Shown piece by piece: positions 1-1,045 of a stretch of DNA of 1,045 nt. Every line of letters starts with the position of its first letter. Within the stretch, counting starts at the first letter, position 1. A program made the translations under genes and the position numbers. The notes beneath the pieces are model-generated. The model worked only from the letters and a program-made list of their open reading frames with translations, did no database searches and was not told the DNA's origin. Origin of the DNA: Escherichia coli (GTDB taxonomy: Bacteria; Pseudomonadota; Gammaproteobacteria; Enterobacterales; Enterobacteriaceae); the NCBI RefSeq assembly GCF_003334385.1, contig NZ_QOWN01000132.1; one strand, 5' to 3'.

Positions 1-401
1 GGCCACCACACTTCGCTGGTGGCAGCTTTGATCAGGAAAACATAGCGCCCGCCTTTATCACGCATGGCACTGGCATGTTTCATGATGTAACGCATGCCGG
101 TGATGTATTGCCCCTCATGCTGACTGGCGCGGCTGTACGGGGGATTGCCAAAGGCAGCACCTTTAAGCTCCGCAAGACGTTCTGACCAGTCATGCGCCAG
201 CGCATTGTCTTCCGCCGTGTAATACGCGGCACATTTGGCGTTATCACCGTCAGTGAACAGATCCAGAACAAACGGACCAAACAAGGTGTTAATTCCCCAG
301 AAAATGTTGTCCGGCGTGCGCCACTGATCGCCCACTTCCTTCAGTTCATGGGCTGGTTTGTTCCGCAGTTCTACCAGCGCCTGGCAATATTTATTACTCA
401 T
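1..401 (-). CDS. Phage-type DNA N6-adenine methyltransferase (phage Dam family, NPPY motif); 3'-partial, continues beyond the window start
   Basis: ATG at 401..399 with an in-frame stop immediately upstream (TAA, 404..402), then open to position 1 (133 codons). Translation: MSNKYCQALVELRNKPAHELKEVGDQWRTPDNIFWGINTLFGPFVLDLFTDGDNAKCAAYYTAEDNALAHDWSERLAELKGAAFGNPPYSRASQHEGQYITGMRYIMKHASAMRDKGGRYVFLIKAATSEVWW... Contains the amino-methyltransferase catalytic motif FGNPPYS (NPPY codons at 146..135) preceded by TPDNIF...LDLFTDGDNAKC...YTAEDNAL and followed by a KGG-hydrophobic-strand block. This layout matches my recollection of the phage DNA N-6-adenine-methyltransferase (Dam) family (Pfam PF05869-like), with the catalytic motif near the N-terminus. 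G-rich SD (GGGGG, plus 410..406) sits 4 nt upstream of the ATG. Confidence 0.88.
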   Translation of the reverse strand, partial: MSNKYCQALVELRNKPAHELKEVGDQWRTPDNIFWGINTLFGPFVLDLFTDGDNAKCAAYYTAEDNALAHDWSERLAELKGAAFGNPPYSRASQHEGQYITGMRYIMKHASAMRDKGGRYVFLIKAATSEVWW

Positions 402-493
402 TAAGCCCCCACGTAAAAAGCATCCGCAATGTCTCCGGAAGTACACCCCGGATGGGCTTCAATGAATTTCTGAACTTCATTCAAAAGACTCAT
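401..493 (-). CDS. Hypothetical small protein (30 aa), possibly translationally coupled between the replication gene and the methyltransferase
   Basis: ATG at 493..491 lies 2 nt after the upstream TGA (498..496) and is preceded by an SD-like AGGGGG (minus strand, plus 504..499, 5-nt spacer). Stop TAA at 403..401 overlaps the methyltransferase ATG (401..399) as TAATG. Translation: MSLLNEVQKFIEAHPGCTSGDIADAFYVGA*. Too short for homology inference; supported only by context and RBS. Confidence 0.3.
   Translation of the reverse strand: MSLLNEVQKFIEAHPGCTSGDIADAFYVGA
406..410 (-). promoter_or_regulatory. Shine-Dalgarno-like G-run (GGGGG) upstream of the methyltransferase start codon
   Basis: Minus-strand sequence GTGGGGGCTTAATG places GGGGG 4 nt upstream of the ATG at 401..399. 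Confidence 0.4.
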
Positions 494-495
494 GA

Positions 496-1045
496 TCACC
501 CCCTGAATCCTTCCGGGATCTGGCTGTAGTCCACGTTGTCGTAACTGGCTTTGAAGTACGGGTCCTCGCGTCTGGCTGCAGATACCGCAGGAACTTCCCA
601 GGATTCTTCGAAATGACGATCCGGACCAAAGAACGTCGACGCCTGCTTCACGAACTGGGTACCGGTATTTCCAGAGACACGCACCCAGGCGGCATAGCGT
701 TTCACACCGTCGAGCATGGTTTCGGGTGTCACACCTTCCCTGATACGGGCTTTCCAGGCTTTGAAGGCTGCTGACTTGGAATTGCCACCAGCACGTTTGG
801 GATACTCCTGCCAGGCCTGTTCAAATTCCGGTGAATATTCCTGTCGGGCAGAACGCGCTGGCGCAGACGCGTCAGCGGATGCATCAATAGTGTTTTTAGT
901 CTCCGTTGTAATCTCTGTAGTAATCTCTGTATTTGTATCAACATTCGGCGTACCCCCTGTTCCGTTATGACGTCGGGGGGTGTTCCGTTTTAACGTAATA
1001 GCTGTATCGCTGATTGCATTATTGCTGTTACTTTCTGGCGAAACA
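496..1045 (-). CDS. Phage replication/primosomal protein with DnaT-like C-terminal domain; 5'-partial, start lies beyond the window end
   Basis: The minus-strand frame with codons at 1044..1042 down to 498..496 has no stop until TGA at 498..496. The track's 78-aa ORF (GTG at 732..730) is only the tail of this open frame, reported short because no ATG/GTG/TTG occurs in-frame upstream within the window. Translation: ...VSPESNSNNAISDTAITLKRNTPRRHNGTGGTPNVDTNTEITTEITTETKNTIDASADASAPARSARQEYSPEFEQAWQEYPKRAGGNSKSAAFKAWKARIREGVTPETMLDGVKRYAAWVRVSGNTGTQFVKQASTFFGPDRHFEESWEVPAVSAARREDPYFKASYDNVDYSQIPEGFRG*. The C-terminal tail SQIPEGFRG and the W..YP / aromatic-rich block resemble the C-terminal domain of primosomal protein DnaT (recalled as ending ...SQIPPGFRG), a domain also found in lambdoid prophage replication proteins. 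From memory, not searched. Confidence 0.72.
   Translation of the reverse strand, partial: VSPESNSNNAISDTAITLKRNTPRRHNGTGGTPNVDTNTEITTEITTETKNTIDASADASAPARSARQEYSPEFEQAWQEYPKRAGGNSKSAAFKAWKARIREGVTPETMLDGVKRYAAWVRVSGNTGTQFVKQASTFFGPDRHFEESWEVPAVSAARREDPYFKASYDNVDYSQIPEGFRG
499..504 (-). promoter_or_regulatory. Shine-Dalgarno-like element (AGGGGG) for the small ORF, embedded in the last codons of the replication gene
   Basis: Minus-strand sequence TTCAGGGGGTGATCATG places AGGGGG 5 nt upstream of the ATG at 493..491. Confidence 0.35.
862..885. repeat. Imperfect 12-bp tandem repeat carrying two 8-bp palindromes, GACGCGTC (866..873) and GATGCATC (878..885)
   Basis: Read directly. The two palindromes share the pattern GAYGCRTC and start 12 bp apart. 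They encode the DASA-DASA peptide repeat. Confidence 0.8.
907..931. repeat. Perfect 12-bp tandem direct repeat gtaatctctgta x2 (908..919, 920..931) with a degenerate flanking copy
   Basis: Read directly from the sequence. Encodes the TEIT-TEIT-TE(T) peptide repeat in the linker of the replication protein. Confidence 0.85.
958..995. repeat. Two 15-bp direct repeats, tgttccgttatgacg (958..972) and tgttccgttttaacg (981..995), 13/15 identical, starts 23 bp apart
   Basis: Read directly. The first copy is preceded by ccccc (953..957), the second by gggggg (975..980). An AT-richer stretch follows at about 990..1030. Confidence 0.8.

Follow-up and report, generated by a model that had tools for sequence, protein, structure and literature searches.

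A 30-codon reading frame upstream of a prophage dam gene is very likely the scar of an in-frame deletion in a PerC-family regulator gene

The window analyzed here is a stretch of 1,045 nucleotides of Escherichia coli DNA in which a 30-codon open reading frame lies between a phage replication gene and a phage methyltransferase gene (dam). Very likely, a single internal deletion of 396 bp in a PerC-family regulator gene, which kept the frame, left this small ORF as its scar, in an allele that arose once and spread by recombination; its product would be inactive as a regulator. The small ORF is thus an ordinary gene remnant, already labelled as such by the standard annotation pipeline, and not a new microprotein.

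Results

The reading frame matches both ends of a PerC-family gene

The window is 99.9% identical to a lambdoid prophage of E. coli NCTC9112. Most related prophages have, in between the replication gene and dam, a PerC-family regulator gene for a protein of 162-164 aa (orf40 of phage SfV; yfdN in many E. coli genomes); this is its usual place in lambdoid prophages of the SfV/CPS-53 type. An earlier reading of the same DNA, made from the sequence alone, had asked whether some relatives carry a helix-turn-helix gene of about 60-80 aa at this place; what is found there instead encodes a winged-helix part together with a PerC domain. A DNA alignment of the window with two full-length alleles shows one clean gap of 396 nt with matching sequence on either side. 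Codons 1-26 of the small ORF are an exact match to codons 1-26 of SfV orf40, and so are its codons 27-30 to orf40 codons 159-162. The deletion comprises codons 27-158, i.e. 132 codons or 396 bp, and keeps the frame. Chance is no concern for this frame, since 78 + 15 nt of it show homology to opposite ends of a known gene. At the protein level, two PHROGs matched by the full-length protein are also matched by residues 1-26 of the peptide (phrog_23071 at E 4e-13 and phrog_1324, a "transcriptional activator", at E 9e-11), and Y159, V160 and G161 are invariant among homologues of the full-length protein. Same locus, same neighbours and the sequence match at codons 1-26 and 159-162 speak for descent from the PerC-family gene; homology to part of an intact syntenic gene, with the functional domains gone, is what one finds in a pseudogene.

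The TGA-N2-ATG arrangement at the upstream boundary, the AGGGGG motif and the TAATG overlap with dam are identical in the window and in both full-length alleles of the alignment. The tight junctions and the Shine-Dalgarno-like (SD-like) motif, which the sequence-only reading had taken for features of a small ORF, are therefore inherited unchanged from the ancestral gene. The initiation region and the stop/start overlap with dam have stayed the same because the deletion is internal and in frame. It had also been proposed that the ORF is what remained of a displaced regulator, cut off when the methyltransferase was acquired. The part about a regulator remnant stands; the part about the methyltransferase falls, since in ~80 of 114 sampled loci with an intact full-length gene, that gene stands right next to this dam gene and overlaps it by an identical TAATG.

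Position, geometry and annotation of the small ORF

Read directly on the minus strand, the small ORF consists of 30 sense codons with the product MSLLNEVQKFIEAHPGCTSGDIADAFYVGA (Table 1). The earlier coordinates for AGGGGG, TGA, ATG, the 30 codons and TAATG were all correct, and the flanking genes are a replication gene and a methyltransferase, as had been claimed. In TAATG (403..399), the TAA of the small ORF and the ATG of dam have one A in common; dam has an SD-like motif of its own, GGGGG, 4 nt before its ATG. With a stop that overlaps the downstream start and its own SD-like motif 5 nt before the ATG, the small ORF has the form of a coupled leader. The program-made ORF listing starts the frame at GTG 499..497, for 32 aa; as part of GTGA, this codon overlaps the stop of the replication gene. 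We consider ATG 493..491 the more plausible start, because its SD spacing is 5 nt, because ATG is annotated as start in SfV, and because GGG replaces GTG in 6 of 73 deletion alleles. Two plus-strand ORFs in this region (35 aa, 358..465; 25 aa, 452..529) are antisense to annotated genes and were rejected as unsupported.

Table 1. Features at and around the small ORF, in window coordinates
Feature	Position	Strand	Description and basis
AGGGGG, Shine-Dalgarno-like	504..499	minus	Read directly; 5 nt upstream of the small-ORF ATG; ribosome-binding site of the ancestral PerC-family gene; also in full-length alleles
Replication gene, 3' part	496..1045	minus	Runs off the window; stop TGA 498..496; WP_126502650.1 (PGAP, "replication protein") in the record with 99.9% identity; PHROG replication-protein families, E 6e-57
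Spacer TC	495..494	minus	Between the replication-gene TGA and the small-ORF ATG (493..491)
30-codon ORF with stop TAA (403..401)	401..493	minus	Very likely in-frame deletion derivative (codons 27-158 gone) of the 162-aa PerC-family gene yfdN/SfV orf40; pseudogene remnant
Retained 5' segment, codons 1-26	416..493	minus	Start of the predicted N-terminal winged-helix domain (helix 1, short strand, helix 2); DNA alignment, AlphaFold2, PHROG matches
Deletion junction	415..416	minus	396 bp absent between these bases; 1-nt (T) ambiguity/microhomology; DNA alignment
Retained 3' segment, codons 159-162 (YVGA) and TAA	401..415	minus	Includes GGGGG, the SD-like motif for dam; DNA alignment
Phage N-6-adenine methyltransferase gene (dam), 5' part	1..401	minus	ATG 401..399 overlaps the TAA; runs off the window; TIGR01712, E 1.6e-49; PGAP

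The expectation that annotation pipelines would miss this ORF was not borne out. In all five deletion-allele records that we opened, NCTC9112 included, PGAP lists it as a pseudogene ("hypothetical protein; incomplete; missing C-terminus"), and a peptide of 30 or 32 aa is present in GenBank as "hypothetical protein", from E. coli and, by the sources' names, from Salmonella enterica.

The deletion removes most of the parent protein

In the 162-aa parent protein, the PerC domain (PF06069) covers residues 98-150 (Pfam, E 2.1e-9), and the codons for these residues all lie within the 396-bp deletion. The N-terminal part gives weak matches to MarR_2 over residues 10-57 (Pfam, E 0.003) and to MarR-type families over residues 6-69 (BilQ, NCBIfam, E 5e-4; phrog_1687, PHROGs, E 4e-5). 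A search by sequence for a solved structure of the parent protein found none. An AlphaFold2 model of the parent, built from 18 homologues with 66-96% identity to SfV orf40, has a mean pLDDT of 76, with values of 80-90 over residues 1-60. It predicts a winged helix for residues 1-60 (helices 3-13, 19-25 and 31-44, and a hairpin 47-60 with strands 47-52 and 55-60), a disordered linker (63-84) and a three-helix C-terminal domain (90-149). According to Foldseek, the modelled N-terminal domain superimposes on the winged helices of ArsR, MarR, MepR, BlaI and Z-alpha with 2-2.6 A over ~60 columns, at weak E-values of 0.06-0.2.

Projected onto this model, the remnant retains helices 3-13 and 19-25 and has lost helix 31-44 and the hairpin 47-60. 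The winged-helix-like start that had been noticed in the peptide thus agrees with the predicted fold of the parent, of which helices 1-2 are kept. Homology ends at residue 26, and the remnant itself is no winged helix, as the recognition helix H3 and the wing are absent. The 30-aa peptide has no match in NCBIfam. With the PerC domain lost in its entirety, along with linker, wing and recognition helix, we infer that the product is inactive as a regulator.

Frequency and distribution of the deletion allele

For the search of complete genomes we used a 48-nt probe centred on the junction, each side of which is too short to seed on full-length alleles. Among 5,426 complete E. coli genomes, 116 have the junction, at 122 places in total, with a match of at least 99% in 112 of the 116. 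The deleted 396-bp segment is present in 3,236 places in 2,588 of the 5,426 genomes, with up to 4 places per carrier genome. The short form is thus a minority allele, at ~3.6% of loci. The only deposited phage with the junction is cdtI, whose record was deposited as a complete phage genome. The presence of the junction in 116 complete genomes and one deposited phage genome rules out an assembly artefact.

For a closer look at individual loci we used three sets: 60 junction-bearing loci and 120 loci with an intact left boundary, both from IMG/VR, and 8 assembled contigs coding for the peptide; the IMG/VR loci are non-independent samples. The 30-codon frame is intact in all 73 junction-bearing loci sampled, and the gene has 162 codons in 113 of the 122 full-length loci. 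A few of the latter end early, at codons 75, 109 or 151, owing to a frameshift or premature stop. One contig carries the deletion allele and a full-length allele in tandem.

Haplotypes around the junction

The replication gene upstream of the deletion allele is of at least two unrelated types, which also precede the full-length gene, and dam lies 3' of every deletion allele sampled. Differentiation of deletion from full-length haplotypes peaks beside the junction: Fst reaches 0.34 across the last codons and dam positions 1-50, against 0.20 across codons 1-26, and drops to 0.02-0.05 past dam position 200. Only deletion haplotypes carry dam30A (48/61 versus 0/80 full-length) and dam118T (42/61 versus 0/80). 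The window has both, and these private variants occur on both 5' haplotypes as well as behind both unrelated replication-gene types. Because of these private linked SNPs, the decay of Fst with distance from the junction, and the microhomology of only 1 nt, the sequence data indicate one deletion event that was subsequently moved between prophages by homologous recombination. Recurrent independent deletions are ruled out by the same small microhomology and by the fact that different backgrounds have the private linked SNPs in common.

Sequence variation in the 30 codons

Among the deletion alleles, only 8 nucleotide alleles exist in the 30 codons. All their polymorphisms in codons 1-26 (T9G, G12A, A18C, G45T, G48C/T) occur in full-length alleles too. 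Changes seen only in the short form are A30D (2 loci) and C17R (one contig), both of them non-synonymous. In full-length alleles, codons 1-26 have 12 synonymous and 8 non-synonymous variable sites, a ratio that we read as a sign of purifying selection on the predicted winged-helix domain.

Just 18 of the 270 possible single substitutions in the small ORF (6.7%) would destroy the frame. Because so few substitutions are disruptive and almost no new mutations have occurred, the 73 intact frames among 73 loci carry no weight as evidence for selection; an intact frame in closely related copies is expected under neutrality.

Translation and coupling to dam

Judging by its start region, the small ORF is probably still translated, and the remnant may pass ribosomes on to dam. 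It may not need to, because dam has its own GGGGG. The SfV record annotates -35/-10 signals for dam inside the deleted segment; a consensus scan for this promoter gave 0 sites. No promoters or terminators were found within the window. An Rfam search of both strands returned nothing at E <= 1, and the RNA fold of positions 380-520 is no more stable than that of shuffled sequence (z = -0.74); on these grounds a non-coding RNA or structured element was rejected as an explanation of the region.

Discussion

The data suggest a model for the origin and fate of the small ORF. A single internal in-frame deletion of 396 bp very likely joined the first 26 codons of a yfdN/SfV orf40-type gene to its last 4 codons and stop. 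The resulting allele very likely had one origin and was then transferred among prophages by homologous recombination. Ribosomes would start at the inherited site, make a 30-aa peptide without a stable fold, and terminate at the ATG of dam. Those that end at TAATG may reinitiate on dam, so that coupling would be kept up passively, as an inherited side effect and without an evolved function. The earlier suggestion of a coupling leader may be retained only in the sense of a passive by-product; the geometry was inherited from the 162-codon gene. The companion suggestion of a real microprotein finds no backing, as the ORF shows no variation independent of the parent gene and is treated as a pseudogene by PGAP.

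Selection for coupling would be a different matter from passive upkeep. If translation of the remnant, ending on TAATG, were needed for adequate dam expression, the remnant would be kept for that reason and only in-frame deletions would persist. The exact preservation of the TAATG overlap and of the upstream initiation region fits this idea, and so does the position of dam directly after every deletion allele; moreover, if the promoter annotated in SfV is real, its loss with the deleted segment would make dam dependent on upstream transcription and translation. Yet the consensus scan gives that annotation no support, dam has an SD-like motif of its own, and one third of deletions are in frame by chance, of which a single event is seen. 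Full-length alleles with a frameshift or an early stop also persist in the sampled loci. We therefore regard a selected leader as unlikely. Highly improbable, in our judgment, is a functional microprotein, i.e. a 30-aa peptide with a role of its own, for example in interfering with full-length YfdN-type regulators of co-resident prophages. Intact frames throughout the junction-bearing sample and the spread of the allele over 116 genomes of diverse origin can be cited for it, and opportunities for interference might exist, given that genomes with the full-length segment have it in up to 4 places and that both alleles can stand in tandem. But the peptide varies no further than the parent gene does, except for the two non-synonymous changes of the short form; it has neither an NCBIfam match nor a gene status in PGAP, and two helices without the rest of the domain would hardly fold alone. 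Persistence of the allele in diverse lineages, in phage cdtI and, by sources' names, in Salmonella could be read as selection. Taken together, the proposition that the remnant is not neutral, be it that the peptide acts on co-resident full-length YfdN-type regulators or that the shortened cistron was selected for altered coupled Dam expression, seems very unlikely to us. If true, it would explain the occurrence of one allele across unrelated replication modules, E. coli pathotypes and, again by sources' names, Salmonella.

Reversing the order of events fares worst. The short ORF might be ancestral, with a 396-bp insertion giving rise to the long gene, or the regulator might have been truncated upon acquisition of dam; apart from gene adjacency nothing argues for either version, and we give them practically no credence. 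The junction falls within the predicted winged-helix domain (residues 1-60), so that an inserted segment would have needed to supply exactly the missing part of a fold, and full-length homologues with 66-83% identity, in records named Salmonella, Citrobacter and Hafnia, have an N-terminus that diverges along with the rest. An acquisition scar is at odds with ~80 loci in which the full-length gene abuts this dam gene through an identical TAATG, and with the survival of YVGA, the four final codons, which truncation would have removed.

On the preferred reading of one internal deletion, the correct label for the frame is deletion allele, or pseudogene, of a PerC-family gene. The case is also a caution for microprotein scans, since the short ORF left behind by an in-frame internal deletion has a good ribosome-binding site, is tightly coupled at either end and so looks like a genuine small gene. 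For the study of prophages, the junction offers an identical-by-descent marker of recombination among those of the SfV/CPS-53 type. The regulator itself appears to be dispensable, because phage cdtI, deposited as a complete genome, has the deletion. cdtI is an inducible phage.

Relation to known systems

The closest relatives of the remnant are yfdN of the E. coli K-12 prophage CPS-53/KpLE1 and orf40 of Shigella phage SfV, with which it shares the locus, the start region and the stop/start overlap with dam. It differs from them by the absence of 132 internal codons, and with these of the entire PerC domain, the linker and one half of the winged-helix domain. Through the parent gene there is a link to PerC of EPEC and the Pch proteins of EHEC, activators of ler/LEE, which belong to the same Pfam family (PF06069). 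The remnant, however, is without the PerC domain, and the predicted winged-helix part of the parent lies outside the Pfam PerC match. YfdN has been called the K-12 homologue of PerC (PMC5931665); in the literature on yfdN and PerC homologues we found no regulatory activity of the YfdN type.

The short coupled ORFs and leaders of phage operons, with their TAATG or ATGA overlaps, have the same geometry as the remnant, namely an SD-like motif, an ATG and an overlapping stop. In the remnant, however, this geometry comes from the ancestral 162-codon gene and did not evolve for a short ORF. Lastly, further decayed versions of this gene are found in the protein database, some with smaller in-frame internal deletions (P0072, P0087 and P0094), others with a premature stop or fused to Dam or RusA. 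Of all these, the allele in the window has lost the most by deletion, and its frequency alone was measured here (116 genomes).

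Decay and possible duplication of the regulator gene

The regulator locus is subject to many modes of decay. Apart from the deletion allele, which leaves a 30-codon ORF between the replication gene and the methyltransferase gene dam, other rearranged forms of the regulator occur in the protein database (P0028, P0029, P0041, P0042, P0072, P0087, P0094 and P0108), and these comprise in-frame internal deletions that remove fewer residues (17 to 42), one doubly frameshifted form, and fusions with Dam or RusA domains.

Both alleles are found on a single IMG/VR contig, L041, which carries two copies of the module in tandem, about 2.9-3.6 kb apart. 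The first copy is the deletion allele, in the order replication gene, 30-codon ORF, dam and rusA, and the second has the full-length regulator gene of 164 codons. This double module could reflect a tandem duplication, two prophages lying side by side or a chimeric assembly. If the tandem arrangement is real, gene conversion between the deletion and full-length alleles would be possible.

Variation in the replication gene

In 6 of the 73 junction-bearing loci, the stop codon TGA of the replication gene is changed to GGA (GGGGGGGATC). The variant gene is two codons longer and ends at a TGA that overlaps the ATG of the small ORF as ATGA, and the same change abolishes the alternative GTG start of this ORF.

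The final ~50 nt of the replication gene, ending in VDYSQIPEGFRG before the stop, are near-identical between loci L007-L194 (pairwise difference 0.015-0.035), and the difference 100-400 nt farther upstream is ~40% in an ungapped comparison of the same loci, which show two distinct types of C-terminal signature, ALYEQAAECDGEVVR and EFEQAW..YPKRAGG. This terminal stretch appears to be a conserved linker or mosaic boundary where modules are swapped.

The gene also contains a 12-nt tandem repeat, TACAGAGATTAC, present in 2.7 copies in the window and coding for a repeated T-E-I-T tetrapeptide. Strain E2 and OkiPb01675 (loci L195 and L196) have one and three copies more, respectively, and these extra copies account for length differences of 12 and 36 nt among matches that are otherwise 97-98% identical.

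Coordinates of the features discussed
Feature	Sequence	Position	Strand
Replication-gene stop variant	window	around 496..499	
Replication gene, final ~50 nt	window	about 496..545	
Tandem repeat TACAGAGATTAC	window	900..931	minus
Tandem module copies	contig L041	3297..9256	
Annotated dam -35 and -10 signals	phage SfV (L003)	3795..3821	
Annotated dam	phage cdtI (L004)	2995..3693	

The dam gene and its annotation in related phages

In about 25 of 114 intact full-length loci (among L075-L194), a 108-aa gene (MTTLTQCQQQVL…) takes the place of dam behind the regulator gene, with the same overlapping stop and start, so dam is an optional module at this position. Judged by its length, the 108-aa gene is probably the LexA_DNA_bind-type gene found after dam elsewhere.

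The GenBank record of phage SfV places the dam -35 and -10 signals within orf40, inside the segment that is missing from the window; no promoter-like site turned up when L003 3300-4000 was scanned with the sigma-70 consensus. In the phage cdtI record (AB285204), the small ORF carries no annotation, and dam is given a start 45 nt upstream of the one assigned by PGAP, for a length of 699 rather than 654 nt; the gene as annotated there therefore overlaps the small ORF in a different frame.
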